Shown: positions 1 to 27,788, counted from the first letter of the stretch. The stretch is DNA of 64,000 nt from a virus (IMGVR_UViG_3300029825_000007:1-64000); one strand, 5' to 3'. Program-made: numbers and translations. The notes: a model not told the origin generated them from the letters alone.

Positions 1-410
1 GATGTCAACTCTCTGTATCTACTTTCATTGTACGGATTGTATACAATATACAGTATACGTTTAATCGAAATAAATGCAAGGCTCTATTTTGCCTTTTTAA
101 GCGTTTAATAATGCTTAGCCTTATAGTTATTCATAAAATGTGTTTTGAAATGAAATAGATGGCAAATTGAAAGCCACAGCGTCAAATAATTTAGTTGTGT
201 GCTTGTACGAAATACAGATATTTGATTTTATTAGGATACTGAGAACAGAAATATCAGTCTTTTACTTTAGCACTTTAAAGTTATAGCTTGAGGTCGTGCA
301 TAGTCGATAATCATGTGTGATTAATCTGATTGACAAGTGATTTTTAGGTGAATTTATGCCATGAATATGGCTGACTTAGAAATGTATAATTATTCATTTA
401 ATGTATAAAA

Positions 411-450
411 ACGTGCATAAAAATAGCCCCTAGCCATGAGACTAAGGGCT
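411..450 (-). terminator. Rho-independent terminator after endolysin
   Basis: agcccctag (425-433) pairs with ctaagggct (442-450), 8 of 9 bp, followed on the minus strand by a T-rich run. Confidence 0.55.
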
Positions 451-455
451 TATAA

Positions 456-1511
456 TTAATGTTCGTTCAAGTATTCCTGTAAAGCAGTAATTGTCTGGGA
501 TGGACTGGACAAGATACCATCTGCCACCTTACCCATTTTATTTTGAAGTGCTATATTGAATTGAGAACCGATATATCCATCCTCTGGTATTCCGAGCCAA
601 TGTTCCATAGCTCTGACAAGTTTAGAACCGCCTTTGGCTACACTTTCCCATTGTGCAGACTTAATTCCCGGCGAAAGATGTTTGTATTTTGTAAGCTGAT
701 TAGAAATTACACCATCCTGTGGAAGTCCAAAATACTGTTGTAATCTTCTTGTCGTAGTCTCTTCCCAATATCCATTAACCTTAAGGATGATCTTATCACT
801 TTGGGGATTAGCTTTTTCTGCTACTTTATCTGGAATAACATATTGAGTGGACATATAACCTATTGTTCTATTTACTTTTATATGTGTCCATTTCCCAGAT
901 GTTTGTCCGTCAATCTCAAAGCGGTTACCTTTGTTTAACTGTAGCAACACTACACCATTCGGTGATTGTCTTACATTAACTTTATCTCCACCACATGTAG
1001 CCGTTCCTGTGGCATGCCACTGCAACTCTGTAAATGATGGTTCTAACGGTTTCATAGGTGTGATCGAAGGTTTGTCCCATGTTTTTTTAAAGTTGTCGAA
1101 ATTGCCATATTTGTTCTTTAGCGGAGTAGGCGTGCTCCCCCAATCAGGCAAGTACAGATGCGGTTTATCGACTGGGCTATGCCAATCGCCGCCCCATGCA
1201 AGCCCGATAGATTTAGCAAGTTGTGATACTCTGGTAAAAAAGTAATTGTCGCTGTATTCTTGACCTTTTACATTTTTAAAAAAATCAAAGGCAATCCCCC
1301 ATTGGTGCTGAGAACTATAGCTAGAACCTCTTGCATTGGTAACCCTGTTCCCCGGTTTGGTTCTTCCTTGTGCATATAATTCATCCTGTTCTTTTGCAGA
1401 CCGGAAGCATTCGCCGATACCTAACTGTAGATTTTCCTTTGCACACAGAACCTGCAACTGTGCAATTTTCTCTTGCAGTCTCGGGTGCAATTCATTGATG
1501 TTTCTTCCCAT
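456..1511 (-). CDS. Endolysin: peptidase M15 (VanY-like) catalytic domain + SH3-like + peptidoglycan-binding repeats
   Basis: N-term SAKEQDELYAQGRT...HQWGIAFDF...WGGDW (M15 zinc peptidase pattern); middle SH3-like segment; C-term LPxDGxIxxQ repeats; last gene of lysis cassette. Confidence 0.85.
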   Translation of the reverse strand: MGRNINELHPRLQEKIAQLQVLCAKENLQLGIGECFRSAKEQDELYAQGRTKPGNRVTNARGSSYSSQHQWGIAFDFFKNVKGQEYSDNYFFTRVSQLAKSIGLAWGGDWHSPVDKPHLYLPDWGSTPTPLKNKYGNFDNFKKTWDKPSITPMKPLEPSFTELQWHATGTATCGGDKVNVRQSPNGVVLLQLNKGNRFEIDGQTSGKWTHIKVNRTIGYMSTQYVIPDKVAEKANPQSDKIILKVNGYWEETTTRRLQQYFGLPQDGVISNQLTKYKHLSPGIKSAQWESVAKGGSKLVRAMEHWLGIPEDGYIGSQFNIALQNKMGKVADGILSSPSQTITALQEYLNEH

Positions 1512-1858
1512 TATTTGCCCTCCTTAGTATGCTTGTCCACTACTTTGTCTAACTGCTGTTTTGCATACAATTCAACGCTGTCAAAAGCATTGTCTACGAT
1601 ATTTGCAACCATATCTTTAGTAATGATTACTTTGAGCGGCGCAGGAATGTAATTATACAATGTATCAATTGCAAACTGATGTTTCTGTCCACCAGATTTA
1701 GCAATATCCTTGTATGTATACTCTGCTTCATTAATCACTGCCGTAGCTTTATCCTGTAGTTTTTTATTGGTTTTAAAGTACCATGCGATAAACCCAATCA
1801 CTACATAAAGTGCAATCCTTACAATTTCTAAAACTAATTTTGTATCCATACTTTTCAC
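1511..1858 (-). CDS. Holin (LL-H-like, single N-terminal TM)
   Basis: 115 aa with N-terminal TM IVRIALYVVIGFIAWYF; overlaps endolysin start (ATGA-type coupling). Confidence 0.55.
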   Translation of the reverse strand: MKSMDTKLVLEIVRIALYVVIGFIAWYFKTNKKLQDKATAVINEAEYTYKDIAKSGGQKHQFAIDTLYNYIPAPLKVIITKDMVANIVDNAFDSVELYAKQQLDKVVDKHTKEGK

Positions 1859-2151
1859 TCTCTTTCTTTTTCGAGATCATTAATTCGATGATTCGCCACT
1901 TTTATCTGTTCATCAGTGACCGCAACAGCCTGTTCTAGCTTATATGTTCGTTCCACAACGTTGTTGTGTTTATCGACACGTTTCGTCAATTCTGATAGCT
2001 TATAATCTATCATGTCGACTGTCTCTTTATTGGCATCTCTCATCTGCTGTTGTTGTACATCAATCTTTTTTTGTTGGCTTCTCTGCTGAAAGCAATTATT
2101 CAGCATGCAAACAATCAAAGTCACACCACTACTTATTAACGCTTCAATCAC
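1855..2151 (-). CDS. Small membrane-anchored coiled-coil protein of the lysis cassette
   Basis: N-terminal hydrophobic segment then heptad-rich region; position just upstream of holin. Confidence 0.35.
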   Translation of the reverse strand: MIEALISSGVTLIVCMLNNCFQQRSQQKKIDVQQQQMRDANKETVDMIDYKLSELTKRVDKHNNVVERTYKLEQAVAVTDEQIKVANHRINDLEKERE

Positions 2152-2232
2152 ACATCTGTCCTCACTTTTTCTGTTTTTAAGACATAAAAATAAGACCTTG
2201 CGGTCTCGCTCGAATGTGCATGTATGCCCTCC

Positions 2233-2415
2233 TTAATCTTTTTCTTTTTCCTGTGCTTGAATCTGGACTTGCTGTAGCTGCTGTACTATGGTCTGCAACT
2301 GTTGTATTGTGTCCCTTAATGTCTCTTCTGTTGCGATTGGTTTACTTGTTTCTGTGCGTACCTCGTTCGGCTCTGCTATTTTAGGGCTTTCACCCTGTTC
2401 CATAATCAATTTCAT
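2233..2415 (-). CDS. Hypothetical small Q/E-rich protein
   Basis: 60-aa ORF between fibre gene and lysis cassette. Confidence 0.35.
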   Translation of the reverse strand: MKLIMEQGESPKIAEPNEVRTETSKPIATEETLRDTIQQLQTIVQQLQQVQIQAQEKEKD

Positions 2416-2436
2416 ACTGATATCTCCAATCTAAAT

Positions 2437-3753
2437 TTATCTTGGTGCGGCAGTAATAATACCATTTGATACATCAATGCTACTAGTTGTCCATGCAATA
2501 CTTCCATTTTCTGCGTCACGGATGCTTGTTACGATTGGTATCTTGCCTGTCCATCCTAGGTAGCCATCCTGCGCTGAAATATGTGTTAATTGTGCATTCA
2601 TCAGCTGAAAACCATTGACGTTTATACTGCATCCGGCATATAGCGTGTTCGGTGTCATGTTCGCACCCACATATTTATTGGAAAAAGTCCATCTCATTAT
2701 ATAGGTAGAATCCGATGAGTACTGCTTATTCGCCCAAGTCATATATGCACCTTGAGATTCCAAATCAAACACAAGGCCTTTTTTGCTAGTATCACTCGCA
2801 TATGAATTAGTTCCGATTGCGCCGACATAGTATCCGTCCCTATAAAAATGATTTCCATTTTCATCGAATACTGCCCTTTTTTTACTATCTGTAATCCCAT
2901 AGTCATAGATACCTATTTGCCCTGTGCTGATTTGCAGATATTTACTAGAATTATTAAAACCATAAATAACCTTGTCATAGTACTGTTGTACGTAAGAGCC
3001 AAACTCATTTTTTGTCACTTTGCTTTCAATCATAGTTGCCTGTTGATTGATTTGAGATTTCAGGGTGTTTGTCTCTGTCTTTGTCGCATACGTTGCAGAT
3101 ACAGTGGATAGTATGGAATCCCCCTTCTGATCTATAATAGTATTCATATGCAGCGTAGTGGAATAGCTTTTAAACCTAGCATCTACAGTACTAGTAATTG
3201 AATCAGCCTTTTGGTTAATTTCACTATTCATCTGTACTGTTGTTGAGTATCCCTTAAGTTTATTATCTGTTGCAGTGTTCGCTGAATTAATGGCATCCTG
3301 CTTTGCTGTATTCATGGATGTTTTAGTTGCGTAGGTATTTGAAACCTCTGTCTTAAAACCGTTCACACTTGCACTAATGGCTGTGTTCATAGCACTGGTG
3401 GTACTATAGTTATCTTTCAGGTTTTGTTTTGTAGCACTTATATCAGCAGACAGCCCATCTACACCGAGCTTGTAATCAGCAACTTTGCTGTCCAAAGAAT
3501 CATACTTTCCTGTCAGACTATTGTATTTCGTAGTCAGGTCACTAAAATTTAAGGTCAGAGAATCCACTTTCAATTCCACATTCGCAAGCTTGCTGTACAT
3601 AGTGGTTTTAGAGTTCTGCAATTCAAGTATTTCGCTATCTGTCAAGATTGCAGATATCTTGCCTTGTACAACTTGTAGGGATGTATCAACCGCACGGAAA
3701 CGCTTAATAATGGCTTCTGACGAATATATGTTTACTTCCTGTGTAAATATCAT
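2437..3753 (-). CDS. Tail fibre / minor structural protein
   Basis: 438 aa with long repetitive S/T/N-rich coiled-coil region (YATKTS, STTxxMN repeats) and a globular C-terminus; sits in tail module. Confidence 0.6.
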   Translation of the reverse strand: MIFTQEVNIYSSEAIIKRFRAVDTSLQVVQGKISAILTDSEILELQNSKTTMYSKLANVELKVDSLTLNFSDLTTKYNSLTGKYDSLDSKVADYKLGVDGLSADISATKQNLKDNYSTTSAMNTAISASVNGFKTEVSNTYATKTSMNTAKQDAINSANTATDNKLKGYSTTVQMNSEINQKADSITSTVDARFKSYSTTLHMNTIIDQKGDSILSTVSATYATKTETNTLKSQINQQATMIESKVTKNEFGSYVQQYYDKVIYGFNNSSKYLQISTGQIGIYDYGITDSKKRAVFDENGNHFYRDGYYVGAIGTNSYASDTSKKGLVFDLESQGAYMTWANKQYSSDSTYIMRWTFSNKYVGANMTPNTLYAGCSINVNGFQLMNAQLTHISAQDGYLGWTGKIPIVTSIRDAENGSIAWTTSSIDVSNGIITAAPR

Positions 3754-3768
3754 AGATCATACCTCCTT

Positions 3769-4764
3769 TCAGGCTATTGCTCTGTTGTAATTATACTTTA
3801 CGCCATCTTGATCTATCGACACATAAATCTGTGTAGTACGCAAATCTGCGTGTCCTAACAGTGTAGAAACGTATTGTATTGGCACACCTTTACGAACTAG
3901 GTTTGTGGCAAAAGTCCGTCTAAACCTGTGTGGATGAGCCTTGTTTACATTTGCACGTTTACCAATATTTCTGACTGCCGCTTCAATCCCCGGTTTTTCA
4001 AGCCTGTTATATGGGGCTTTCCTGCTCACGAATAAAGCGTCATTATCATCTGTTCTGGTTTTAAGATATTGTTTTAAATATTCGCAACAAACATCTGACA
4101 TATAAAATGTCCTTTCCTTGTTTCCCTTTCCAACAACGATTGATTCTTTAGTGGTGAAATCTATATCATCTATATTGAGTGATGCCACCTCTGACACTCG
4201 TAAACCTGTGGCAGATAAAAACTCAATCAATGCCCGATCTCTCTTGTTTGTACAGGCATTCCGTATTTTAAGCATATCAATCGCTGTGAATGGTTTCTTT
4301 TGCACATCTGGAACCTTAATATGTTTCACAGCCAGTGCCGGGTTAATACGGATAAATGATTCCTCATACATCCATCCAAAGAAAGATGATATAATTCTAC
4401 GCTTATTATCCAGTGTCTTGTTGCATATCTTCCTCTCTTCCTGATACATGGCAAGATACATACGTATGTCATATGTATTTACCTCATTAAAGGGCTTATC
4501 TATCGCTTGCACAAACTGCGATAATTCCAGTGAGTATGCGGCGATCGTATTTTCTGACTTGCCCTCTAGCCGCTTTGTGGCAATAAACTTTTTAATTGTC
4601 CGAATATTCCGATCATCATAGGGTACTAGCTCTGTAGTCTTTTCCCTGATCTCGTAATTTTCGAATTGTATATACAGTGTTCGTTCAACCTTTTCAACAA
4701 CTTCCTTGTCTAATCCTGTCAGTGCCACCAATACGTTTTCTATGATTTCTGTTTTCACATCCAT
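3769..4764 (-). CDS. Xer-type tyrosine site-specific recombinase (candidate fibre-cassette invertase)
   Basis: GLRVSE (R), GKGNKER (K), HPHRFRRTFAT (HxxR), LLGHADLRTTQIY (H...Y); embedded in tail genes next to the repeated core sites. Confidence 0.85.
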   Translation of the reverse strand: MDVKTEIIENVLVALTGLDKEVVEKVERTLYIQFENYEIREKTTELVPYDDRNIRTIKKFIATKRLEGKSENTIAAYSLELSQFVQAIDKPFNEVNTYDIRMYLAMYQEERKICNKTLDNKRRIISSFFGWMYEESFIRINPALAVKHIKVPDVQKKPFTAIDMLKIRNACTNKRDRALIEFLSATGLRVSEVASLNIDDIDFTTKESIVVGKGNKERTFYMSDVCCEYLKQYLKTRTDDNDALFVSRKAPYNRLEKPGIEAAVRNIGKRANVNKAHPHRFRRTFATNLVRKGVPIQYVSTLLGHADLRTTQIYVSIDQDGVKYNYNRAIA

Positions 4765-4793
4765 AGTAATACCTCCCTAAAGTTTATAGGAAT

Positions 4794-4866
4794 ATGATAT
4801 CACTATGATATCACCATGTCAATACTTAAAATATATCACCTTGACATCACCTTTTCATCATGCTAC
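4794..4866. promoter_or_regulatory. Divergent control region: four ATATCAC-type repeats plus a plus-strand promoter
   Basis: atgatatcac at 4794-4803 and 4805-4814 (11-bp spacing), tatatcac 4832-4839, acatcac 4844-4850; TTGACA 4841-4846, 17-nt spacer, TACACT. Confidence 0.45.
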
Positions 4867-4890
4867 ACTGTTTTTGGGGAGGTGAATATA

Positions 4891-5049
4891 ATGTCAATCG
4901 GTAAAAACAACACTAGGATGATTGTTACAATTCCTATCAAACTGAAAGAGCAACTTGACGCTCTCGCAGAAGAAGAAGGAAGGTCTACAAGTAATCTGGT
5001 AGTAAAAATAGTAAAAGAATACATTGAACAGAACCAGAGCCGGGAATGA
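4891..5049 (+). CDS. Ribbon-helix-helix (CopG/Arc-like) DNA-binding protein
   Basis: 52 aa; RMIVTIPIKLKEQLDALAEEEGRSTSNLVVKIVKEY is a beta-strand/helix/helix RHH pattern; RBS GGGGAGGTG upstream. Confidence 0.7.
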   Translation: MSIGKNNTRMIVTIPIKLKEQLDALAEEEGRSTSNLVVKIVKEYIEQNQSRE

Positions 5050-5068
5050 ATCCGGCTCTTATTTTTTT
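5036..5068 (+). terminator. Rho-independent terminator after RHH gene
   Basis: agagccgg (5036-5043) pairs with ccggctct (5052-5059), then tattttttt. Confidence 0.7.
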
Positions 5069-5088
5069 GCATAAATTCAATCTCCTAT

Positions 5089-5101
5089 CCGCCGATTTAG
5101 A
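5089..5101 (+). repeat. Core site A (ccGCCGATTTAga)
   Basis: 13/13 identical to site B; read in frame as Ala-Asp-Leu. Confidence 0.7.
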
Positions 5102-5387
5102 TGTTAAAAGCAAATGGAATATACTGGATCAATATAATATTCCTGTCACCGAAGAAGAAAAAGTAAAACATATAACTCCGTATCCGACAGGGAAAAGTCC
5201 AGAAGAATTTTTGGTTTCTTATGGCATTGCAAACGGAGGTCAATCTTATGGTGGATCAACAATCGTTTTACAAGTCAATGAATCCAAACCATGCCATGTT
5301 CCCGTATATGGGTCATATAATGAGAAAATAAGCGGAATCCTAACCGTATACAACGAATTTTTAGACGAATCTAAAAATATTGTGTGA
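5091..5387 (+). other. Silent C-terminal fibre cassette A (ADL-DVKSKWNILDQ..., 95 codons after the core)
   Basis: Open frame from the core to the stop at 5387; sequence upstream of the core is the RHH terminator, so no independent expression is expected. Confidence 0.55.
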
Positions 5388-5493
5388 TCTAAATTTGGAC
5401 AAGCAATAGAAACATACCGGTTAAAAATATACTATCGTTAAGACTAGATATTAAAATTATTTATTACAAATAAATACTATATACAAAGTCACT

Positions 5494-6027
5494 TTATGAG
5501 CTTATAGGTTGTATTGTATAATCCATATTCACAGCGTTACCAACTATATAATAAACATAGCCATAGTAATTTGTGAACGCTATTTCGGCGCCTGTGTCAA
5601 TACTGGTAATAGTTACATAATCACTAAGAGAAGCATGCGCACTCATGGGTACTTTGCCGGTTGAAACGGAAGGAATTAGTGACACAAACGCTGCCCCATG
5701 TGTTGCAAAAAATAAAAAGCTTATGACATTCCCACTAGAGTGACTATCTATGGGAACTGTTATTCTAAACTTTTTAGTGTTACCCATTGCAAACCCTTTA
5801 ATAGATTGCCTGCCTAAATCGGCGTTTAAACCGTTAATTGCCCCCGGTAAGGTCTTATTGCTTGTATTAAGTGTGCTGTATGTTTTGCTTGTCAGTTTAT
5901 TTAAGATCGCATCTGCAAGTTTATTATAATCAATCCGCTTTGTATCCTCTGAATCCTCTAGCAACATAATATCACTGTCAGATGGATTGTCCTTTTTTGT
6001 CAATTCTGATAAATATGTATCTGCCAT
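5494..6027 (-). CDS. Tail fibre tip / receptor-binding protein: constant N-terminus + currently joined cassette D
   Basis: ATG with AAAGGA RBS; N-term LSELTKKDNPSDSDIMLLEDSEDTKRIDYNKL resembles phage fibre N-termini; core ADL at codons 69-71. Confidence 0.6.
   Translation of the reverse strand: MADTYLSELTKKDNPSDSDIMLLEDSEDTKRIDYNKLADAILNKLTSKTYSTLNTSNKTLPGAINGLNADLGRQSIKGFAMGNTKKFRITVPIDSHSSGNVISFLFFATHGAAFVSLIPSVSTGKVPMSAHASLSDYVTITSIDTGAEIAFTNYYGYVYYIVGNAVNMDYTIQPISS
5814..5824 (-). repeat. Core site D (cGCCGATTTAg) inside the expressed fibre gene
   Basis: 11-nt identity to sites A and B in inverted orientation. Confidence 0.7.
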
Positions 6028-6100
6028 AATGTTATTTTTCCTTTCTAAAATGAATTATTTTTATATATTTTATTTCTATATTATTGTCTCCGTTCTTTCA

Positions 6101-6113
6101 CCGCCGATTTAGA
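6101..6113 (+). repeat. Core site B (ccGCCGATTTAga)
   Basis: 13/13 identical to site A; in frame as Ala-Asp-Leu. Confidence 0.7.
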
Positions 6114-6456
6114 GACCGTAGATTTTACGCCACAAATACAATTGCTAAAGGGGGTAAAATTAGCGACTTATTCTGAGGCATCTTGTACAGGTAACATGGT
6201 AATCCTACATCTTCACGTACAATTACCGACTGATTTCCCGATTAACGTAATAACAAATATAGCTACTCTACCACCTGTTTTTTCTCCGAAATCTGCAAAG
6301 TTTCCGACAGTAGTGCAGTACGCGGATGAGTGGAGCATATCATCAGGTGGGTTATGCTACGGATATTTAGGTGGATTGGTGGGGTTACAAGTTTCAATAC
6401 CCGAGAAAAATACCAAATGGTTAGATATTTCAACGACATATTTTCGTAAAGTTTAA
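6103..6456 (+). other. Silent C-terminal fibre cassette B (ADL-ETVDFTPQIQLLKGVK..., 114 codons after the core)
   Basis: Frame is open from 6049 but has no ATG before the core; the ORF track only starts it at a TTG at 6142. Confidence 0.55.
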
Positions 6457-6474
6457 AACTTAAGGCCTAGCTCA

Positions 6475-6816
6475 TTATAATCGTATAATCGTGTAATCAA
6501 AAAAGCTTGATGCAACTATGGTAACTTTGCTCCAGTTATTGCCATTAAAAGTAAAAGTGATATCATCATAGTCCGGATTAGATGTGTCAAACGTTACTAT
6601 TTTATCACCAAATAATGTGTTAACATACATGTTTCTGGGGCCAGCACGTAAAGAGTAATTTACTACACCTGTGCTTACGCCAAAGTTACCATTGAAACTA
6701 GCCATATATAAGAATACATCAGTCTTGATTACACTTTTTGCAATTCTAATCGTAATAGAACGATATGATTCGGAACTTATTGAAAAAATCTTTTTCGATA
6801 AATCGGCGATAATCAA
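6475..6816 (-). other. Fibre cassette C (TTG-II-ADL-SKKIFSISS..., 107 codons after the core); possibly a second expression slot
   Basis: Core lies at codons 4-6 of a TTG-initiated ORF overlapping the stop of the 977-aa gene; C-terminus ends DYTIIRL, related to cassette D (DYTIQPISS). Confidence 0.45.
6799..6808 (-). repeat. Core site C (cGCCGATTTA)
   Basis: 10-nt identity to the other three cores, same orientation as D. Confidence 0.6.
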
Positions 6817-9746
6817 TCTGTTTTCCCAATTAGTAAGTATTTTCCCTTCTTTGTCATTAATTTCTTTTTATCCTTTTTGGTAACAAGATACATAAGTGTT
6901 CTTGTGCCAAACTGGCCGATATATGTTGCACCGCCCAATCCGGAATCGTCATTTTTCACGGTTATACTATATCCTTGCCCTGCATATCCGTTAGATGTTT
7001 CTGATTTTCTATACCATGAAAACCATGTAAATGGATAACTCTTTGTAACCTCTTCCCCCGCCTTATATACATGTGCTGTCAACGTTGTTGTTCCATTTCC
7101 ATTATCTGCATAGGTGACGTTGTACATCAGTATCTTGTCCGATACGCCGTGCAATTGATTCTGTGTGTCTGTGATATCTGTCTTAATGCCGTCTACACTT
7201 GTCTGTATTGTAGTTACGTGCTGATTAGTTTCAGCAACAGCATTCTGTACACCTTTGATATCTTCTGCTAAGCCTTCTGCATCCGTCAAAACTACAAGAT
7301 TCTGGCTGTCCAGTACATTCTGACCACCACTAGCATAGAGCGTAACTTTAATGGATTTTACATCTTTGCCCTGTGGTGTATAAACTTTCGTTGCTTCATC
7401 TTTAGAGGATAAATAGGTCTGTGTAAAGGTTTCTCCGTTACTGCTTTCTTCTACCTTAAATCTCCCGGAATATGCTTGTACCGAATTGCCATCATTATAT
7501 TGACCTGTGAGCGTTATATTTGCCGGAATAAGCGTTCCATTTTGCTTTCGGACAATCGCTAAAGTGGATGCCTTTAAACTGTAGGAAACGCCTGTACGCC
7601 CATCCAGAGCCTTACTAATACTGAATCGTTTGACAAGCCTTGTTTTCTCATCATCTGGATTAGCACTGTAAGATGCTTCAATGTCAACATAGCCGTCATT
7701 TACGGTTAAATTAGACACTTGATAAGTATGTGTTGCGTTGCTCCATACACCTGTCAATCCTGTGGATGCAGTAACTTTATAAGTTGCATTGTCAGATACA
7801 TCTAAATCTCCGAGATACACATACATGGTGGTTCTACAATTGGTAAAATCACCACCGCTGCCATCTGCATTTGTGTGTACAACATGGCTGTCATTACTGA
7901 GAACCGCCGATATACTATCCAGTGATGAGATGCCGTTAATTGCTTCAATCGCCTGATCTGCTGTGTTCTGTGCTGCTTTAACGCTATTTGACATCTGTGA
8001 AAACACCATATCAAGTGATTGCTTTTTATCATCAAAGTAGATTAGGTTTGATTTTATGGTAGTATCACCGTTGTTGATCTCTGTGACAACACTGTTGATA
8101 TCTAGTTTACTTCCGGCTATGTTTGCGTTGTCTGCAACCATGCTGTCCTTGATAATAGGGTCTTTAATGGCATCCGCTGTCAGTCCTAGAGCATTCCACA
8201 TGATCTTGCCATTAGCATCTGCAACGTAATAATTAAATTCTCCATTTGCATCTTGTCCGGCTTGCATACGGATATTACCGTCTTTATCTTTCCACTGCTG
8301 TGTATTACCGGATATTTGTACCCCACCGTCTTGAGAACCAATCATGATTTGGTCTGTGTATATCCGGCCGGAAAGTAACTCTCTCACATTGGCTATATCT
8401 GCAAGTACAGAACGGATAACCGCTGTGTCAATGACCGCATTTTGTGATGTCAAGTGTATATTCTGAATATCTCCTATTCCGGCATTCCCGGATAACAGAG
8501 ATTTGATATTTGCTGTGTCTGCATCTAAGATACCAATATCAGCTTTGGCGGCATCCAAATCTGTTACTGTTAATTCTTTGAATTTTCCATAATCTACATC
8601 CAGATTTTGTATATGTGCGTCTACTGCATTTAAATTCTTAATTGTCGCAAACGTAATATTCGCTGTCTCAACGTCTAATTTATTTGCAATAGCATGGTCT
8701 ATCAATGCAAGTTTGATATTCCAACGGTCCTGTGCTTGTACGTTAGGACCCTTAAAACCTGTTTCTTGTTCGGATTCAGATTTTCCGACCGCTTGTATTG
8801 TTGTTTTGATACCACCGTCATAATCTTGTGTCAGCATCATAACTGGCACTTTAAAACTTTTCCCTTTGCGGTCTTTCACTGTAATGATATCCCAAGGGTC
8901 TATACGTGGGTCACCGAGGAACCCAACTTGTCCCGGCATGTAAGAATAGTTTTTAAGGTTATTCCATACACCATTGAGCATTGACTGTGTCATAAATGGA
9001 TTGGAGAAACTTATCTCCCTGATTCCACTTCCAACACTGATTGAGATATCCTCTCCTTGCTCGTCTTTGCCTGTATAACACGTTATTTTTTGTAATTGGA
9101 ACAAGTAATCATTATGCTTAAAAGAATCGTAGTAGCGGTTATCAGCGACTGTGTATTCGCTATCTGTGTAGGTCTTAATCTCAACTTGTCCTGATCTATT
9201 ACAAATAGCAAATCCGCCATACATTTGTGATATATATGACAGTACTTCTCTGCACGTATATCCAACTGGTTTTTTCATGCTGATAGATGTCAAGCCGGAT
9301 GTTATAACCTGAACATTTGTAATCGTGCTGATTGCATTTAAAATAGCGACCGTATTTGTTGTATCCGGCAAACTCAAAAAACATGGTTTTTCCATTCTCA
9401 TCATACGGTCATAAGCAGTCACCCTTGAAAACTCTTCATCAGCTTGTGGCTTTTCACATGTAAAGAATCCCATTGGGATATATTGCATACTGTCATTGAC
9501 TTCAATACCGATCTTTAATTGTATTTCGTGCCCCTCAAGCAACACATCTGTTGCAATACTCAAGTCTATATATTGTGATACCGCTGAACCAATAGAAAAA
9601 TCAGATTCACTGTTCGAGCCGCCATTAATTGTAATACTCTTGATGCCATCTGTGATATCAGTCTTTCCATCAACAGTTATCAGAGCACGGAACATTCTAG
9701 TGTCTTGCTGTAGAACCTCTTCAATATCTTTATTTACTTGATACAT
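6813..9746 (-). CDS. Tail tip / host-specificity protein (Tal-like)
   Basis: 977 aa; position after tape measure and distal tail genes; N-terminal siphovirus tail-tip-like region, long fibrous C-terminal part. Confidence 0.7.
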   Translation of the reverse strand: MYQVNKDIEEVLQQDTRMFRALITVDGKTDITDGIKSITINGGSNSESDFSIGSAVSQYIDLSIATDVLLEGHEIQLKIGIEVNDSMQYIPMGFFTCEKPQADEEFSRVTAYDRMMRMEKPCFLSLPDTTNTVAILNAISTITNVQVITSGLTSISMKKPVGYTCREVLSYISQMYGGFAICNRSGQVEIKTYTDSEYTVADNRYYDSFKHNDYLFQLQKITCYTGKDEQGEDISISVGSGIREISFSNPFMTQSMLNGVWNNLKNYSYMPGQVGFLGDPRIDPWDIITVKDRKGKSFKVPVMMLTQDYDGGIKTTIQAVGKSESEQETGFKGPNVQAQDRWNIKLALIDHAIANKLDVETANITFATIKNLNAVDAHIQNLDVDYGKFKELTVTDLDAAKADIGILDADTANIKSLLSGNAGIGDIQNIHLTSQNAVIDTAVIRSVLADIANVRELLSGRIYTDQIMIGSQDGGVQISGNTQQWKDKDGNIRMQAGQDANGEFNYYVADANGKIMWNALGLTADAIKDPIIKDSMVADNANIAGSKLDINSVVTEINNGDTTIKSNLIYFDDKKQSLDMVFSQMSNSVKAAQNTADQAIEAINGISSLDSISAVLSNDSHVVHTNADGSGGDFTNCRTTMYVYLGDLDVSDNATYKVTASTGLTGVWSNATHTYQVSNLTVNDGYVDIEASYSANPDDEKTRLVKRFSISKALDGRTGVSYSLKASTLAIVRKQNGTLIPANITLTGQYNDGNSVQAYSGRFKVEESSNGETFTQTYLSSKDEATKVYTPQGKDVKSIKVTLYASGGQNVLDSQNLVVLTDAEGLAEDIKGVQNAVAETNQHVTTIQTSVDGIKTDITDTQNQLHGVSDKILMYNVTYADNGNGTTTLTAHVYKAGEEVTKSYPFTWFSWYRKSETSNGYAGQGYSITVKNDDSGLGGATYIGQFGTRTLMYLVTKKDKKKLMTKKGKYLLIGKTD

Positions 9747-10821: not shown

Positions 10822-13800
10822 TTAAAATTCAAAATTAAAAGGGAATGGCAACTTCCCAGATGATTTTACACGTTTTGTAACTTCTTCAATAATAAAATCT
10901 GTAATCTGCTTATTACCAATCTGTATATTGACTACTGGTGCTTGATTGTTGTTATTATCTGAATGAGCATTGCTAAATACTTTATCCATTCCGTCAACAA
11001 CTGCATTTTTAATAGCATCTGCAATAACGGCATTGTTGGCTACTGCATTTTTATTTCCGACTTTACCAACCATTTCTGGATTTCCAAACTCATTCATTCC
11101 CCATATTTCACCAGTTGGGAAACCACCTTTTTTATACCAGTCAATTCCAAACTTCGGTGTAGAAAACTCAATACCACCAATTGAATGTTGTGTTGATGAC
11201 ATATTAATGTGCGGTAATGGAATATGGAAATTTGAGAATCCATCTGCAAAGTTTTTAATTGCATTTCTTCCTATTTTCCATAACCCTCCGAGTTTATCAC
11301 TGATTTTACCCGGCAAACTAGTAAATTCCTTTGCGATATTCGAAACAGCAGTTCCGGCATCGCGTTTCATACCTGCCCAATCACCGGAAAGGATTTGTCC
11401 TATGACACCCCAATCACCACGTGTGTCATTCTCAGTTTTGTTCCATGCTTTTTTGACCGTATCTGCAACTCCGCCGAACTTTTCATTGGCTTTTGTTTTT
11501 AACCCAGACCATGTGTCATTTACTTGTTGACTTACGGAATCCCATGTACTTTTAGTATCTTTTTTTGTTTCTCCCCACCAGTTTGATGCTGAATCATGGA
11601 TGTTCTCAAATGTTTCAGAACCCCATTTTTTTAGATTTCCCCATGCGCCACTCATCTGATCGCATACAGAATCCCAAGTAGCCTTTGAATTTTTTTTGGT
11701 TTCATCCCACCAACCAGAAACGGATTCATATACTTTTTTAGCAGCATCTTTGATCTCATCCCAATGAGTGATAATCAATCCAACACCAATCGCAACACCG
11801 GCTATCAAAGCACCTGTAGGGCTAAAAACAACAGAACCGATAGAATCTAGACTGGAACTAACTTTAGCTACTGCTTCTGCAATAGCAGGTGACATATCCA
11901 TTAATGGTCCCATAAATTTTGCAACTTCTGATGCAATGGTAAACCCTTTAAATAATGCTTTAATAGCAAGTAATCCAGAACCAAGTGCTAGAATAACCTT
12001 TCCGTCTTTAGTGTCAAACAAGCCAGATATAACACCGCTAAATGCTGTCCAAATGATATCCAATAAAGTGCTTGCAATGCCTTTCCAGTCTATAGAACCA
12101 AGAAATTCACCGATATCTCTACCGATTTGTTTCCAGTCGGTATTCTGCACAACTTCATTAATCGTACCAAGCAAATTCATTGTAAGATCACTTAAAGATT
12201 TACCCAATCCAGCCCAGTCTGTGTTGTGAATGAAATAATTGATTCCGTTATAGAGATTTTTAGCAATATCATTCCAATGAACCGTATCGTTAAAGTTATT
12301 TAAAATATCCCTAAGCCCATTAAGCCCACCAGACAATACACGACCAATAGTAGTAAAATTAACTTTTTCAAAGATACCATTGATTCCATCACCGAACTTC
12401 TTACCCATAAGAGCATAATTAAGTCCGGGGTCTTTTTCACCATTACCGTTGAAAAATCCGTCTAAGATATTCCAGATAATCATGAATTTGTTTCCAAGAA
12501 AGTTTCCGATATTCTCAAAGTTTACTTCGGTAAAAATTCCATTCACACCTGTTGCAAATTTAGCACCAAGATTCTTCCAGTTAATGCCCTCAATTAATAA
12601 ATTAAGCGTATTGATTATCGTGTTAATTCCTGCGCCAACAGTTCTACCCATTAAGTCCCAATCAATGTTATCAACAAGACTATTAAAGGTACGTGTAAAC
12701 GCATTGCAGAAATACGTGATCTTTGGCCCGACATTATTCCAATTAATGGCATCATAAACTTTCTGCATTCCTTTATTGAACCCATCAGCTATGATTTTGC
12801 CTAGCCCCTCCCAGTCTTCACGTTTGATTGCATCACGCATTTTTTTAGCAAAAGCACTGATCTCTTTATCTATCGGAACTGTAGTAAACATATCAGCAGG
12901 CGATACACCAGTGTATTTTGATGTTCCTGGTGTTTCTGTGTATGTAGTAGGGTCTTTTGTATTGTCATTTAAGACATTTAATTCATCAAAGCCCATAATT
13001 GTGCGCTTTAACTCTTTGACAGCTTTATTCGCTTTTTTAGTGCCTTTAGTAGCTCTTGTACTTTGATCTTCAAGAACTTTACCGTAATCCTGATATACTT
13101 TCTTAGCTTGAACAGCGTATTTCTTTCCTGTAAGTGCTGCAAAGAATTGACCAACTGCATTTAAGGCTTTAGAGATCATTTCTATGAAGACACTTAAATA
13201 TGGTGCAACTACATTAACAATAGGTGCGAACGCTACTGCAAATGCGTTTTTGAGCATTAAAAGAGCAGATATGATACTTGATATGCTCTTGTTATATTCT
13301 CCGCTGTATTGAACTAGGTTTTTACTTCCCTCTGCTATTGCAGTTTTAATACTAGAAATAAGCTGAAACACACTAGAATACAATACAGACATTCCGATCA
13401 TATGGCCGATTGAAGTCTTCTTCCCTGCTTCTTTTTTGAATCCAAGTAATGATTTAAGAGCATTTCCAATTTCTCTTTGAACAGGCTTAAAAGCATTCCC
13501 AACTTTATTTCCAAACTTACCTATGGATGAATCCATTTTGCCGAATAGTTGTTTTCCGGCATTAGCAAATTTTGAAAATTTAGCCAGCTGTTCTTTTGCT
13601 TGTTTCGCTGAATTTCCTTCTGCTTGTAAACCTTTTTGTGATTCCTGTGCAGACTTATTTAACTCTTTATTATTTGTACTTACTTTGGCTTTTTCACGTG
13701 CTAAATCTTGCATTTCTTTAGCAGTCATACTAGCCGCCTTACCTTCACCAGATAGGGCTTGATTAGATATTTTTGCTAACTCTTCGAGATACTTTTTCTG

Positions 13801-14601
13801 CTCTTTTTGAGCAAGTAACATCTCTTGCATTTGCTCATAAGCATCATCAAAATCATTATCACCGAATGACAGCCCCTGATCTGATAAGGATTTTAGTTCT
13901 GATTTTAGGCTTGACACATTGACTTCAAAGTCCTGTGTGTCTGATATAGTACCTTTAAATTCACCTGATAGATCGTTAAGTGATTGTGTCATTGACACAA
14001 TTCCGCTATCATCTACTTTTGGCTCTATATCCGGAAAATCAAAATTATAATCGTTAGGGTCAGGCTCTTCAAACTTTATAGGAATTGGTTCATCTGTGAA
14101 TCCTTTTTCATTCAAGAGTTTCATTTTACCTGAATCTTCCCAAAAGTTTTTAGGACGATTGGCCGATTGGATAGCTTGCAATTCAAGTAGTTTTTTCTTG
14201 TATGAATCTAATTCGTTTGTAGCCCTTACGATATCATAGGAAAGACTTTTAAACTCTTGTGAATCCTTATTTATACCGAATGTCTCTTTTTTATCTTTCC
14301 GAGCATTCAAAGTTTTTAAACGATTCTCAAGTTTTCCTATTTCTATCTCAACGTCTTTGATGTTGTTCGTATCAACATTGATTTTACCTATGTCTTTGAT
14401 GCTTTTCATAAAGTCTTGATATGCGACTTTGGCTTTCTTAACCTTTCCAGTACCAAAGTCTATATCTTGCTTTGACGCACTAGTAAGAACGGTACGAACA
14501 TCTTTTAAAGCATTTTTTAGATCATCTAATTGAGATATAGCTTTTTTTGATTCTGTTTCAACTAAAATCTCAAGAGAATCTATCTGGCCGTTATCAGCCA
14601 T
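10822..14601 (-). CDS. Tail tape measure protein
   Basis: About 1260 aa; coiled-coil N-term, hydrophobic core region, W/G-rich tandem motifs (NWKNLG, TDWAGLG, WWDETKK/WWGETKK); start set at MADNGQ with AAGGAGGG RBS. Confidence 0.85.
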   Translation of the reverse strand: MADNGQIDSLEILVETESKKAISQLDDLKNALKDVRTVLTSASKQDIDFGTGKVKKAKVAYQDFMKSIKDIGKINVDTNNIKDVEIEIGKLENRLKTLNARKDKKETFGINKDSQEFKSLSYDIVRATNELDSYKKKLLELQAIQSANRPKNFWEDSGKMKLLNEKGFTDEPIPIKFEEPDPNDYNFDFPDIEPKVDDSGIVSMTQSLNDLSGEFKGTISDTQDFEVNVSSLKSELKSLSDQGLSFGDNDFDDAYEQMQEMLLAQKEQKKYLEELAKISNQALSGEGKAASMTAKEMQDLAREKAKVSTNNKELNKSAQESQKGLQAEGNSAKQAKEQLAKFSKFANAGKQLFGKMDSSIGKFGNKVGNAFKPVQREIGNALKSLLGFKKEAGKKTSIGHMIGMSVLYSSVFQLISSIKTAIAEGSKNLVQYSGEYNKSISSIISALLMLKNAFAVAFAPIVNVVAPYLSVFIEMISKALNAVGQFFAALTGKKYAVQAKKVYQDYGKVLEDQSTRATKGTKKANKAVKELKRTIMGFDELNVLNDNTKDPTTYTETPGTSKYTGVSPADMFTTVPIDKEISAFAKKMRDAIKREDWEGLGKIIADGFNKGMQKVYDAINWNNVGPKITYFCNAFTRTFNSLVDNIDWDLMGRTVGAGINTIINTLNLLIEGINWKNLGAKFATGVNGIFTEVNFENIGNFLGNKFMIIWNILDGFFNGNGEKDPGLNYALMGKKFGDGINGIFEKVNFTTIGRVLSGGLNGLRDILNNFNDTVHWNDIAKNLYNGINYFIHNTDWAGLGKSLSDLTMNLLGTINEVVQNTDWKQIGRDIGEFLGSIDWKGIASTLLDIIWTAFSGVISGLFDTKDGKVILALGSGLLAIKALFKGFTIASEVAKFMGPLMDMSPAIAEAVAKVSSSLDSIGSVVFSPTGALIAGVAIGVGLIITHWDEIKDAAKKVYESVSGWWDETKKNSKATWDSVCDQMSGAWGNLKKWGSETFENIHDSASNWWGETKKDTKSTWDSVSQQVNDTWSGLKTKANEKFGGVADTVKKAWNKTENDTRGDWGVIGQILSGDWAGMKRDAGTAVSNIAKEFTSLPGKISDKLGGLWKIGRNAIKNFADGFSNFHIPLPHINMSSTQHSIGGIEFSTPKFGIDWYKKGGFPTGEIWGMNEFGNPEMVGKVGNKNAVANNAVIADAIKNAVVDGMDKVFSNAHSDNNNNQAPVVNIQIGNKQITDFIIEEVTKRVKSSGKLPFPFNFEF

Positions 14602-14617
14602 ATGTGTGTCCCTCCTT

Positions 14618-14944
14618 TTACTTTTCGGTGCGACCAAAGTTTGCTTGCATAACCATTAATTTACTCAAGAACAACTGTCTTTCTTTTTCCTTTTGCTCTT
14701 CTGGAATATTCTCTGGTTTCGTTTCATTTTTGTTATAAGACACTGGTTGATTCGGATACTTTGTTTTCCTGTCAAACATAGAGCCAAGAACCAACATCAT
14801 ATATGTGCCGATATTCCATGCCAAAAAATCAAGATCTTTATCTTTTTGTTCTCTTTTCTTTTCACCATATTTAAAATACCTTGACAGCTTTTTAGGTGTG
14901 GATTTCCAAAATATATCCATTGGAATCTCGTACTTCACTGCCAT
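14618..14944 (-). CDS. Tail assembly chaperone, -1 frame extension (T part of G-T)
   Basis: This frame stays open upstream to the slippery site at 15049-15055, giving a G-T fusion. Confidence 0.6.
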   Translation of the reverse strand: MAVKYEIPMDIFWKSTPKKLSRYFKYGEKKREQKDKDLDFLAWNIGTYMMLVLGSMFDRKTKYPNQPVSYNKNETKPENIPEEQKEKERQLFLSKLMVMQANFGRTEK

Positions 14945-25142: not shown

Positions 25143-25235
25143 TCAGACTGGCAAGATTCGAACTTGCATCTTAGAGAATATAAGGAGTGGAAGATTGAAA
25201 ATTCTCTACGCTTTTCCTAATTAAGCTACATTCTG
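25143..25235 (-). tRNA. Aberrant tRNA-like gene (canonical acceptor, D and T arms; non-canonical anticodon arm)
   Basis: Acceptor CAGAATG/CAGTCTG (1 mismatch); D arm GCTT..AAGC; T arm GCAAG-TTCGAAT-CTTGC. The centre forms a perfect 8-bp helix TAGAGAAT/ATTCTCTA with a 21-nt loop. Confidence 0.4.
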
Positions 25236-25324
25236 TTAGTGACGGGAACGTTTCTCAGGGTTGTTCTTTAACCGCCACTGTTGCAGTTCATTTGTATTTC
25301 CCACCAACCACAACAAAGGGATAA

Positions 25325-25396
25325 CTGAGATAGTTGGACTCGAACCAACAACTTCCTGATTAACGGCCAGGCGTTCTACCATTGGACTATATCTCA
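25325..25396 (-). tRNA. tRNA-Asn (anticodon GUU) with C at position 33
   Basis: Acceptor TGAGATA/TATCTCA; anticodon arm CCTGG-CCGTTAA-TCAGG; T arm GTTGG-TTCGAGT-CCAAC; 72 nt; CCA not encoded. Confidence 0.8.
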
Positions 25397-26330
25397 TTAT
25401 TACAAACATGATTAACGTTTCCGCTTATTCCCTATAGATTCAATCATATTCGATCACAGTGATGACAAGTCTGAACTTTCGGGAGCTACCCTAGGCTTCT
25501 TGCCACGGTCGAGCACTGGGAGGATTGACTACCTCCAAATTTCACGCATCATTCAGATTATATGTTTTCCATCATATGGTATTTGCTGATTGCGCTACTT
25601 TAACATTCCGACTTGTGTTATACTCGCATTTCTGCGATTCACAGCAAAAATAATGGCTTATTGGAAATTCCTGTCTAGTCCGTAGTCTTCCGCACCACTC
25701 ACATCAACAGGTTATTCTTCCACAGGAAGCGTCTATTGTGCCACCCACAAGGGAACTATCTTTGATTACTCTATAATGATACACTGCATGATTTTGTTGT
25801 CGGATTCCCGGCTTCTGTCTGACATTCGCATATCAGTCAAAGAATCATCAAGCAAGTATCCCAACTTGACTTTTCTCAATTCCATACATCTCGGAGTGGA
25901 TGTTACCCATTTATGCACCGAGGTAATCATGTTTGTAAAAAGAACAGTAGGGTTTGAACCTACAACTCACTGCGACTTACATTTATCAACCGATATGCAC
26001 AGTGTGTCTAACTCCTCTATGAGTTATGTTCCTTTGATTCCGGGCTATGTGGATTTTATATCGCTGCTTGCGGGATGAATAGTTACGCTGATGCAACGCC
26101 CGGATATTGTATCAGAAATTCCTACCGGACCTTGTGACGGTCCTTTAATCAGCATTCCGCTAGTAGGGAAAGGAGGTCTTCTAAATGAACACCGCATAAT
26201 CTATCACTGCAATTCACGGTATGTAGAAACTAGAAGATGTGAATGTGATAGAAAGTAGTGAGTAGTGGAATTGCACCACCTTTAACTACGTCTCACTAAA
26301 ATTTAAATCCAGATTAGAATTGAGTTTATA
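25397..26330 (-). ncRNA. Candidate large structured non-coding RNA region (ROOL/GOLLD-like context); strand and ends uncertain
   Basis: No plausible ORF on the gene strand for about 1.36 kb in a dense genome; many clean hairpins (ggagg/cctcc, cttcc/ggaag, ctcgg/ccgag, ccgggc/gcccgg, ggacc/ggtcc); flanked by tRNA genes. Confidence 0.3.
25940..26033 (-). tRNA. Aberrant tRNA-like element (94 nt) with no foldable anticodon arm
   Basis: Acceptor AGGAACA/TGTTCTT; D arm ACTC..GAGT; T arm GTAGG-TTCAAAC-CCTAC. No register of the central 46 nt gives a 5-bp stem with a 7-nt loop. Confidence 0.3.
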
Positions 26331-26463
26331 AAAAACATTGTCATTATTCCTGACATAACTCTTTGTGTATCACCTGCGGCACCACGATTTCCTGATGATA
26401 TTAGAGCCATAAGGAATATATTTAACGCTGTTATTATTGCTTTTATTGGAATTAGAATCATCA

Positions 26464-27024
26464 TTATATTAAACTCTCTTCTCTTAATTTCCTGTCTAAT
26501 GTTGACCTTGTTATGCCTAATTTTTTGGCAAGCAATGTCTTTGTCATATGCCCATTTTTATAAGCTTCATATCCTGACTTTAAATCATCAATGCTTATAT
26601 CTTTAAATCTTCCATTATACTTTCCACTGGATTTTGCAATCTCAATTCCTTCGCGCTGTCGTTCCAACATGTTTACACGTTCAAATTCATTAATCGCACC
26701 AATCATTGTAAGCATTAATTTTCCAGTAGCCGTTGATGTATCAATGTTTTCCTTGTTGCTTACCAGATGAATGCCACGATTATTCAATGTTTCAACAATA
26801 TCAAGTAAATCTTTTGTGCTTCTCGCAAGTCTTGAAAAATCATGAATATAAATCACATCACCAGGTTCTGATTCTTCCATCATTTTCTTAAACTCTGGTC
26901 TATCTGTGTTCTTACCTGATATTTTTTCTTGATACCAAACATCAATATTATGTTGCTCTAATTCTTTAATCTGTCTCGCTTCATTCTGCTCTATCGTTGA
27001 TACTCTTACGTATGCTCTGTTCAT
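26464..27024 (-). CDS. Small serine recombinase (resolvase/invertase family)
   Basis: AYVRVSTIEQ (catalytic Ser), DRLARS-type motif FSRLARS, C-terminal HTH LAKKLGITRSTLDRKL; 186 aa. Confidence 0.85.
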   Translation of the reverse strand: MNRAYVRVSTIEQNEARQIKELEQHNIDVWYQEKISGKNTDRPEFKKMMEESEPGDVIYIHDFSRLARSTKDLLDIVETLNNRGIHLVSNKENIDTSTATGKLMLTMIGAINEFERVNMLERQREGIEIAKSSGKYNGRFKDISIDDLKSGYEAYKNGHMTKTLLAKKLGITRSTLDRKLREESLI

Positions 27025-27154
27025 AGCTGTTCCCCTCTTTTTTGTGATCTATAGGTATTATATCTTATAGGTCGTAATATGTCAAGATGTTATTGCTTAT
27101 AAATAGTAATTATGTTAAAATAACAATCAGCACCATAGGAGGTGGCTATATTAC

Positions 27155-27786: not shown

Positions 27787-27788
27787 AT

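Follow-up and report, generated by a model that had tools for sequence, protein, structure and literature searches.

A putative four-slot tyrosine-recombinase shufflon at the tail tip of a Clostridia-type siphovirus, with natural crossovers between phages at its core sites

The viral DNA studied here (IMGVR_UViG_3300029825_000007:1-64000; "the window" denotes this whole stretch of 64,000 nucleotides) carries, at the distal end of a siphovirus tail operon, a tyrosine recombinase gene beside four short open frames that begin at copies of one core sequence. Comparison of this locus with its relatives leads us to conclude, with good confidence, that it is a four-slot shufflon of the type of Rin from Bifidobacterium siphophages, in which the recombinase would exchange the C-terminal part of a small tail-tip protein, a domain that probably binds a receptor. 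An earlier note on the same DNA, made from its sequence, had proposed a shufflon that sets alternative C-terminal cassettes behind one constant N-terminus, and this proposal is now strongly supported by comparative evidence: natural fusions of the constant module to other cassettes, permutation of cassettes among slots, breaks of homology at the cores, and a pair of reciprocal recombinants.

Four core sites bound four cassette frames

The 9-mer GCCGATTTA occurs in four exact copies in the 64-kb window, at 5091(+), 5815(-), 6103(+) and 6799(-), with 0.35 copies expected by chance and four or more copies in none of 100 shuffles of the window. The core common to all four sites is the 10-mer CGCCGATTTA, whose four copies all lie at 5090-6808, two on each strand; the 64 kb hold no further exact copy, and only one extra, unrelated site (7905) appeared when one mismatch was tolerated. 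The core is 10-11 bp long, and the left flanks of the sites are weakly similar. Sites s4 and s2 (A and B in the earlier note) are identical over 13 nt. Each core is read in frame as GCC-GAT-TTA, that is, Ala-Asp-Leu (ADL), and each opens a different frame, of 98 (A), 117 (B), 110 (C) and 109 (D) codons when counted from the Ala. The frames are arranged as two tail-to-tail pairs, A with D and B with C. In all these respects, the four in-frame cores within 1.7 kb, the 13/13 identity of A and B, and the paired arrangement of dissimilar segments, the exact scan agrees with what the earlier note had described.

Along the operon, which runs on the minus strand, slot 1 (core > C) lies at the end of a large tail gene; slot 2 (B < core) follows and abuts the upstream flank of the constant module; slot 3 consists of the constant module, its core and cassette D (core > D); and slot 4 (A < core) is followed by the terminator and the gene of a ribbon-helix-helix (RHH) protein. 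The recombinase, a gp58-like fibre gene and the lysis genes come after slot 4. Only slot 3 yields a protein with a start codon and a ribosome-binding site (RBS), of 177 aa; here too the earlier note had been right, in that D alone is joined to a credible N-terminus (open reading frame [ORF] 5494-6027, with an ATG, an RBS and 68 residues before the core). Its two remarks on the neighbouring silent slots also hold: A is preceded by the RHH terminator (hairpin 5036-5059 and a T-run), and B, a (+) frame, has no in-frame start codon 5' of its core. Cassette C has a possible TTG start that overlaps the stop codon of the tail gene, which is probably incidental because it is not present in the relative L023. 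Start codons that overlap upstream stops occur at 5046-5049 (ATGA after the RHH gene, slot 4) and at 6813-6816 (TTGA after the tail gene, slot 1), from which a cassette in slot 4 or slot 1 could be weakly translated as MNPALIFLHKFNLLS-ADL... or MII-ADL..., respectively.

The cassettes are pairwise unrelated, apart from a marginal signal between A and B. The earlier note, to which A and B looked unrelated, had held C and D to be related, which we could not confirm: BLASTP gave no match between C and D, a Smith-Waterman shuffle test gave z = 0.47, and the two have only the terminal DYTI in common.

Cassettes change slot, strand and partner among relatives

Below, const-D and similar terms denote the constant module fused to the cassette named. 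Residues 1-71 are identical in the proteins P0001 (cassette D), P0004 (cassette E) and P0053 (cassette C). The const-E fusion (P0004) is found on eight contigs of close relatives, and the const-C fusion (P0053) on two contigs from different studies (L025 and L026). Cassette D in turn has three further settings: it follows a different constant module in P0002, another fibre gene in L024 (where its slot is silent; 91% nt identity) and a BppU-like protein in L027. By exact look-up, a collection of 15 billion proteins contained none of the const-C and const-F fusions and partner ORFs sought; a near-exact const-C (P0053) was present there as a member of a cluster.

Cassette order is permuted among the relatives, with B-, C-, D- and E-type cassettes changing slot or strand. 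B-type cassettes occupy slot 2 in the window, slot 1 in L023 (46% aa identity), slot 4 in L005 (35%) and both slots 2 and 4 in L025, and E-type cassettes occupy slot 3 in L005 and slot 4 in L023. Cassette C is in slot 1 in the window and in slot 3 in L025, and the D-type cassette is in slot 3 in the window and in the silent slot of L024. Relative to the constant module, B-type and E-type cassettes are found on opposite strands in different relatives.

Homology between relatives breaks at the cores. L005-L010 align to window positions 1-5099, 5815-6108 and 6804 onward, and to nothing in between, and the tail gene of L025 is 100% identical over 2559 nt up to base 6799, where an unrelated cassette begins. 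The four cores of L023, whose backbone is 83% identical, all read TGCCGATTTAG (TGCC...), against CGCCGATTTA (CGCC...) at all four sites of the window; this difference in the first core base is a concerted change that includes the non-coding flanks. The codons GCC-GAT-TTA, one of 48 possible spellings of ADL, stand at the sites of every relative examined. Homologues of the cassettes show ratios of nonsynonymous to synonymous substitution (dN/dS) of 0.24-0.58 whichever slot they occupy (0.24 for D against L024, 0.24 for C and 0.25-0.58 for B), and the startless cassettes are therefore maintained as coding sequence.

The two-slot relatives L005-L010 read ttatCGGCGgtgaaag (L005:5917-5935) where the window (6102-6808) has ttatCGCCGATTTA, the C-B pair and TAAATCGGCGgtgaaag. 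The entire pair with its inverted bounding cores is precisely missing and CG+GCG is left, which is not the product of a simple core x core deletion. A sister system with a different repeat was also seen (L036:6980-8950; ERZ28614565 scaffold_1171). Its constant N-terminus, MENTNVTEQ...INELNSK, is essentially invariant, but the database has it in combination with at least 35 different C-termini (proteins P0005-P0040); a 22-nt inverted repeat, TAATGAACTAAATAGTAAGAGC, at 7249-7270 and 7817-7838 surrounds two cassettes, and a 331-aa recombinase 38% identical to that of the window lies directly downstream of them.

Natural hybrids place a crossover within the core

In sample ERZ724023, core s4 is joined to an MBL/ComEC-like gene on one side (L003) and to a truncated reverse-transcriptase (RT) gene on the other (L022). 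The two junctions resembled an attL/attR pair, and an integrase explanation was therefore followed up. The unrecombined partner predicted from both junctions has an RT fragment that ends in ...YYPSIGV, and exactly this protein, of 170 aa, exists (P0321). The partner site, X, reads CGCCGATTgA, a degenerate core, and lies in the tail module of another phage (L051-L053), in which the order is a P0002-type constant module, a core, a long cassette, the RT fragment, X, the MBL gene, the gene of a homologous 332-aa recombinase and that of a gp58-like fibre. The window and L051 are the parents and L003 and L022 the reciprocal hybrid products, and a four-way alignment places the exchange within the eight bases AATCGGCG (CGCCGATT on the core strand). 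The L022-type junction, RT with RHH, was found in five samples. The core thus works in vivo, at least between genomes.

Cassette pairs are also found in foreign surroundings. The A-D pair is 99.6% identical at the nucleotide level in L027, where homology ends at both cores and the flanks, compared with the window, show no similarity either as DNA or in translation. Cassettes C and B form a pair that s1 and s2 enclose in the window; in L025 the pair is enclosed by s3 and s4, with its relative orientation unchanged. Core s4 is the exact end point of contigs L004/L031 and L032, and L021 begins with the same 127-mer, which proves heterogeneity at this point. Because the A-D pair is nearly identical in an unrelated backbone and both reciprocal hybrids were recovered, we put forward, tentatively and as a view with nearly as much for it as against it, that core and Xer-type recombinase form a cassette-exchange system common to gut and fermenter Clostridia phages that goes beyond an inversion switch: tail-to-tail pairs bounded by inverted cores would move as units between unrelated backbones, much as in recombinase-mediated cassette exchange, and single crossovers at a core would give viable hybrids with swapped genome arms.

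The loci of the second phage type and of the hybrids are L051:1-5400, L052, L053, L003:6928-8213, L022:1-660 and L039-L042. The second type (L051) has the truncated RT, the degenerate core and the MBL/ComEC-like gene in place of slot 4 and the RHH gene. Intact RT homologues read YYPSIVHDVL, so the RT gene is itself broken at the core-like CTCAATCG. Four contigs from four samples and two assemblers (L039-L042) share one starting base (TGAGTAACAGC...), which lies 224 nt ahead of the RT start, and this shared end suggests the boundary of a multi-copy retroelement. In L027:1-2148 (ERZ27283045 k119_174045), both flanks share a 20-nt inverted repeat, TTCACTAAACGCCGATTTAG, and cassette D comes after ...NLTSTDASKPLAAPMGKLLDDKISSLN-ADL, which seems to be the terminus of a BppU-like fibre protein broken by a frame change. 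A low-coverage SPAdes contig (L034:957-1016) folds back at window positions 6408-6467, in the spacer between B and C, and is probably an assembly artefact.

The recombinase is Xer-like and is accompanied by an RHH gene

The earlier note had described a Xer-type tyrosine recombinase with R, K, HxxR, H and Y intact beside the cassettes; its match to PF00589 and its alignment to XerD bear this out. The protein scores 232.3 bits against NCBIfam NF040815 (the XerA/integron-integrase group; curated cutoff 220), a membership that is a matter of sequence and implies no role in chromosome dimer resolution. Its residues 55-326 align to XerA and XerD with the ATGLRVSE, GKGNKER, HRFR and LGH..Y motifs kept, and it consists of a SAM-like N-terminal core-binding domain and a catalytic domain, without an arm-binding domain. 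The gene adjoins slot 4. Orthologues (72-94% nt identity) flank the cassettes in L005, L023, L025 and L051, as does the equally long, 38%-identical homologue in the sister family. A second tyrosine integrase, of 404 aa, is encoded at 38545-39759 (-). No serine recombinase was found among the ORFs examined in 1-12 kb, and the enzyme that adjoins the cassettes is the tyrosine recombinase.

When GTDB genomes were scanned with the recombinase, the top match (42% identity) was on a 2.3-kb contig of a Lachnospiraceae metagenome-assembled genome (MAG). A tblastn search of a phage collection gave no Bifidobacterium record among the 30 matches listed. Homologues of 34-36% identity lie between the last tail gene and the holin gene of isolated Clostridia phages, where they are annotated 'integrase': Terrisporobacter phage TPELB_ph1 (L037, 17645-18640), C. 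perfringens phage phiCp-D (L038, 21639-22616) and C. scindens phage phiCs5676-1. TPELB_ph1 carries another integrase, and phiCp-D carries ParM.

An RHH gene lies beside the cassettes, as the earlier note had stated; the product matches PF07878. The 126-bp region between this gene and the recombinase gene holds a minus-strand promoter-like site, TTGACA-17-TATCAT (11/12, TG), and a plus-strand one, TTGACA-17-TACACT (10/12, TG). Direct repeats of the GATATCAC type (family D1, 4786-4857) overlap these strong divergent sites, and RHH may repress the recombinase gene from these putative operators. L005, L025 and L028 have the RHH gene, whereas L023 lacks it and L051 has the MBL gene in its place; we regard the RHH gene therefore as an accessory that the design can dispense with.

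The target is probably a small tail-tip protein with a conserved N-terminal domain

A HMMER scan with the 71-residue N-domain returned 413 cluster representatives, nearly all of 145-285 aa, with the domain at residues 1-70. The first ~70 residues are conserved in this family, and the sequence is hypervariable beyond ...INxLN. In relatives without the recombinase (L001 and L002), a homologue of 145-163 aa directly follows the big tail gene. The cassette of the AlphaFold model of const-E (P0004) has pLDDT values of 70-86, and the top PDB matches of this model were phi812 baseplate chains and the tip of the R2 pyocin fibre, both weak (E values of 4e-3 to 0.1). The target would thus be a small tail-tip protein made of an N-terminal anchor and a C-terminal domain, encoded by the cassette, that probably binds a receptor.

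How the shufflon may work, and other explanations

In the mechanism that we propose, the 331-aa recombinase would be the catalyst and would recombine any two of the 10-bp cores, with strand exchange inside CGCCGATT. Oppositely oriented cores on one genome would recombine with inversion of the intervening DNA, at a frequency that we presume to be useful, and inversion would place a new cassette in frame behind the ...Asn-Ala-Asp-Leu of the constant module. Recombination of s3 with s4 would swap D and A directly, and the cassettes of slots 1 and 2 would reach slot 3 through two successive inversions; B or C would come to lie behind the constant module in the operon orientation by s1 x s4, then s2 x s3, plus s3 x s4. 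RHH would probably throttle the recombinase through operators located in the divergent promoter region. Genomes of different phages would also recombine at these cores, and cassette pairs, even whole genome arms, would be passed between them. The earlier note had listed four inversions that could together place any of the four domains behind the constant N-terminus. The D/A swap by s3 x s4 is retained in our proposal, but the flip of the constant segment between s3 and s2 (D x B) is unproven as a productive state, since the constant module and the tail gene always run in the same direction and the minus strand of the flippable segment that contains the module showed no promoter-like site.

A number of observations speak against an inversion switch of this kind. 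No clean inversion isomer, that is, the same two cassettes flipped, was present among ~25 contigs. At least seven independent contigs have the configuration of the window and eight have const-E, and the constant segment occurs in all ~25 contigs in the tail-operon orientation, so the D x B flip may yield a silent intermediate and not a productive state. The predicted const-A and const-B proteins were not found by exact look-up in the 15-billion-protein collection. The slot differences could be explained by exchange between genomes alone, and the contig forks at core s4 (L004/L021 and L032) may reflect coexisting hybrids rather than inversion. The isolated Clostridia phages with homologous recombinases have no cassettes or convincing inverted repeats near the gene, from which it follows that gene position by itself proves nothing, and also that this position predates the shufflon. 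As to the target, no Pfam or PHROG family matches the protein, and the AlphaFold model of const-D (pLDDT 54) was unusable and was left out of the fold search; for these reasons the term receptor-binding is drawn from synteny, hypervariability and the weak fold match of const-E.

These observations could mean that the cores are hot spots at which only separate phage genomes exchange DNA, by double or single crossovers during co-infection or with resident prophages, and that the cassettes form a store and not a programmed inversion switch. All the direct evidence of recombination is indeed inter-genomic (the L003/L022 hybrids and the A-D pair in an unrelated backbone), the different positions of the C-B pair in the window and in L025 amount to a translocation and not a flip, and the lack of a clean isomer in the ~25 contigs is as expected. 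A recombinase that joins cores in trans, however, would also act on inverted cores 0.7 kb apart, barring a special filter, and startless cassettes on the reverse strand that are under purifying selection need inversion to be expressed in their own genome. The occurrence of B- and E-type cassettes on opposite strands relative to the constant module, and the active inversion seen in reads in the Rin and BV01-like precedents discussed below, also argue against a store without a switch, which we consider unlikely. It seems far less probable still that the 331-aa recombinase is the phage integrase or a dimer resolvase, with core s4 as attP and the repetition of the core incidental. The contig breaks at s4, its junctions with foreign DNA (the MBL gene and the RT fragment) in some samples, and the 'integrase' annotation of homologues that have no cassettes nearby would all fit. 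But the foreign DNA is not a host chromosome, and once the partner site, at the P0321 loci, proved to lie in another phage's shufflon locus, within its tail module, the attP reading of the s4 junctions was ruled out; the window moreover has its separate 404-aa integrase, the s4 junction is intact in the 64-kb window, in L028 (50.8 kb) and in L005 (94.8 kb), and four in-frame cores and the const-C and const-E fusions would be left unexplained.

We give equally little credence to the idea that the repeat is a conserved Ala-Asp-Leu motif at a domain boundary and that the segments are independent small genes or decaying duplicates. ADL does end the conserved N-domain, C has its TTG and A an ATG that overlaps the upstream stop, yet the nucleotide identity takes in the non-coding base before GCC, which covaries at all four sites, and the same codons are used at every site in every relative; the core alignment in effect refutes this idea. 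Besides, B is startless, L023 lacks the TTG of slot 1, slots 1, 2 and 4 have no N-domain, and homology breaks and crossovers map to the core. The Rin-like shufflon is accordingly the explanation that we retain for the locus.

Locus context

The coordinates of the locus and of its neighbours in the tail operon are collected in Table 1. tRNA-Glu(ttc) and tRNA-Asn(gtt) genes lie at 25143-25396 (-), just upstream of the terminase gene, and two AP2-domain proteins (35286-36584 and 37295-38098) are encoded in a plus-strand gene block (26000-38500) that adjoins the 404-aa integrase. Judged by length arithmetic alone, contig L003 would stop near 38.5 kb of the window, beside this integrase, and the region may be a variable island or an att region. 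Contig L021 (ERZ922853) is 100% identical to window positions 1-5216 and runs 1.2 kb past position 1, to a gene for a 169-aa protein and a helix-turn-helix (HTH) gene. No circular wrap-around of the window was found. A blastn search of GenBank phages with the region gave no match, and an exact-pattern scan of JGI metagenome contigs and IMG/VR for the junction of constant module and core gave 0 matches; a 16-nt LN-ADL pattern was found at eight loci in IMG/VR, which look like chance matches and were set aside.

Table 1. Position of the cassette locus and adjoining genes in the window
Feature	Position	Strand	Remarks
Holin-size genes and endolysin	456-1511	-	Lysis region
gp58-like fibre protein downstream of recombinase	2437-3753	-	PF07902 4.3e-06 (below cutoff); phrog_9886
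Xer-type tyrosine recombinase, 331 aa, presumed invertase	3769-4764	-	PF00589 1.2e-41; PF13495
Divergent promoter region, recombinase/RHH, 126 bp	4765-4890		GATATCAC-type direct repeats, candidate RHH operators
Ribbon-helix-helix (CopG/Arc-like) protein, 52 aa	4891-5049	+	PF07878 2.2e-12; Arc-like repressor PHROGs
RHH intrinsic terminator, left flank of slot 4	5036-5069	+	9-pair stem (6 GC pairs), then T-run; hairpin 5036-5059
Core s4 (A in the earlier note)	5090-5099	+	CGCCGATTTA; crossover point of natural hybrids L003 and L022
Cassette A, silent slot 4	5091-5387	+	98 codons from ADL; protein 100% identical in unrelated backbone L027
Cassette D, slot 3, expressed, fused to constant region	5494-5823	-	109 codons; ORF 5494-6027
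Core s3 (D in the earlier note)	5815-5824	-	Exact core match
Constant N-terminal module of small tail-tip protein	5824-6027	-	68 codons + ADL
Upstream flank and RBS of constant module, left flank of slot 2	6028-6101		One conserved block with constant module in L005 and L025
Core s2 (B in the earlier note)	6102-6111	+	Exact core match
Cassette B, silent slot 2, startless	6103-6456	+	117 codons from ADL
Cassette C, silent slot 1, directly after tail gene	6475-6807	-	110 codons from ADL
Core s1 (C in the earlier note)	6799-6808	-	L025 tail gene 100% identical up to here, unrelated beyond
977-aa distal tail protein (Tal/host-range type), left flank of slot 1	6813-9746	-	phrog_6616 tail protein 2.3e-39; phrog_9680 host range/adsorption 3.2e-21
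Tape measure protein	10822-14637	-	Tail operon

Discussion

Nothing limits phage ecology and phage therapy more than host range, and a phage with this locus would carry a small library of receptor-binding tips together with a dedicated recombinase to change them. The locus offers a concrete case that can be tested, in Clostridia-type phages of gut and fermenter, of which few representatives have been cultured. The design seems widespread, given the sister family, with its homologous recombinase, the same layout, a different repeat and many C-termini, and the ~400 representatives of the N-domain family. Because parent and hybrid genomes map the crossover to eight bases, reporter assays and engineered cassette swapping should be straightforward. 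If the cores do serve exchange between phages, they would be a common currency by which unrelated phages share receptor-binding modules without sequence homology, and part of the mosaicism of phage tail tips would be explained.

The logic of the locus has counterparts in several known systems. In the shufflon of R64 and other IncI plasmids, the tyrosine recombinase Rci acts at sfx sites in pilV, and inversions swap C-terminal segments of an adhesin in frame; the sfx sites, of 19 bp, consist of a 7-bp spacer and a conserved 12-bp arm, and Rci has an extra C-terminal domain. By description, the tyrosine recombinase, the short asymmetric sites with one conserved arm and the constant N-terminus are shared with our locus, but the target there is a plasmid pilus adhesin and here a phage protein. 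The Gin, Cin and Pin invertases of Mu, P1 and e14 are serine enzymes that need an enhancer and Fis and that invert the C-terminal part of tail-fibre genes. With these, and with Min of p15B, a multi-cassette serine invertase system with six sites (PMC6109161), the locus shares the logic of swapping the C-terminus of a fibre by inversion for host range, whereas its recombinase is of the tyrosine type. For the trade between phages, the integron and recombinase-mediated cassette exchange offer an analogy, in that a tyrosine recombinase of the Xer/IntI group acts at short sites that bound promoterless cassettes in unrelated backbones. Unlike in the integron, there are no folded single-strand sites of the attC type, the cassettes are fused in frame and not driven by Pc, and the unit of exchange appears to be the tail-to-tail pair between inverted cores.

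Systematic surveys place phage tail proteins among the common targets of programmed inversion, and the closest precedent is Rin, a phage-encoded multi-cassette tyrosine-invertase system for receptor-binding proteins (RBPs) in Bifidobacterium siphophages (Mavrich et al. 2018, PMC6109161). The recombinase of Rin is Xer-like and armless, its rix sites are asymmetric and 11 bp long, a constant segment (Rc) is combined with five variable cassettes (Rv), and the integrase is separate; inversions of Rin were seen in reads (PMC6109161), and the system was also found in Eggerthella prophages in 2022 (PMC8778435). Our locus resembles it in the Xer-like armless recombinase beside the cassettes (a likeness of description), in the short asymmetric repeat that marks the 5' end of every cassette (11 bp in rix, 10 bp here), in the single constant N-terminal segment combined with several dissimilar C-terminal cassettes of a siphovirus tail-tip or RBP gene, and in the canonical integrase elsewhere in the genome. 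It differs from Rin, a system of Actinobacteria, in that its nearest relatives are Clostridia phages and a Lachnospiraceae MAG; its core is unrelated to that of Rin (TTCCCTAACCC); two tail-to-tail pairs stand in place of five 'tandemly oriented' cassettes, and the constant module is set between two cores; the target has only 177 aa, of which 68 are constant; an RHH gene adjoins the recombinase; and the evidence comes from contigs and genomes, where in Rin inversion is known from reads. A 2026 preprint reports in BV01-like phages of Phocaeicola vulgatus a recombinase-flanked tail-fibre shufflon of three cassettes and six isoforms that is active in reads (PMC13596623). In this account that system, like ours, is a recombinase-flanked region of 1.7 kb with a 10-bp directional motif between non-homologous cassettes that alters the distal end of a fibre; it differs in its Bacteroidota host, its motif (TGGGAGAACT) and its three cassettes.

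With these precedents, the locus is not a new kind of system, and the view of the earlier note that a multi-cassette tyrosine-recombinase switch would be unusual in a siphovirus is outdated, preceded as it is by Rin (2018), the Eggerthella prophages (2022) and the BV01-like phages (2026). What is new, compared with them, is the Clostridia-type siphovirus and host group, the small target of 177 aa, the constant module set between two cores and the RHH gene, together with the evidence that the same cores mediate the transfer of cassette pairs and the formation of hybrids between phages.

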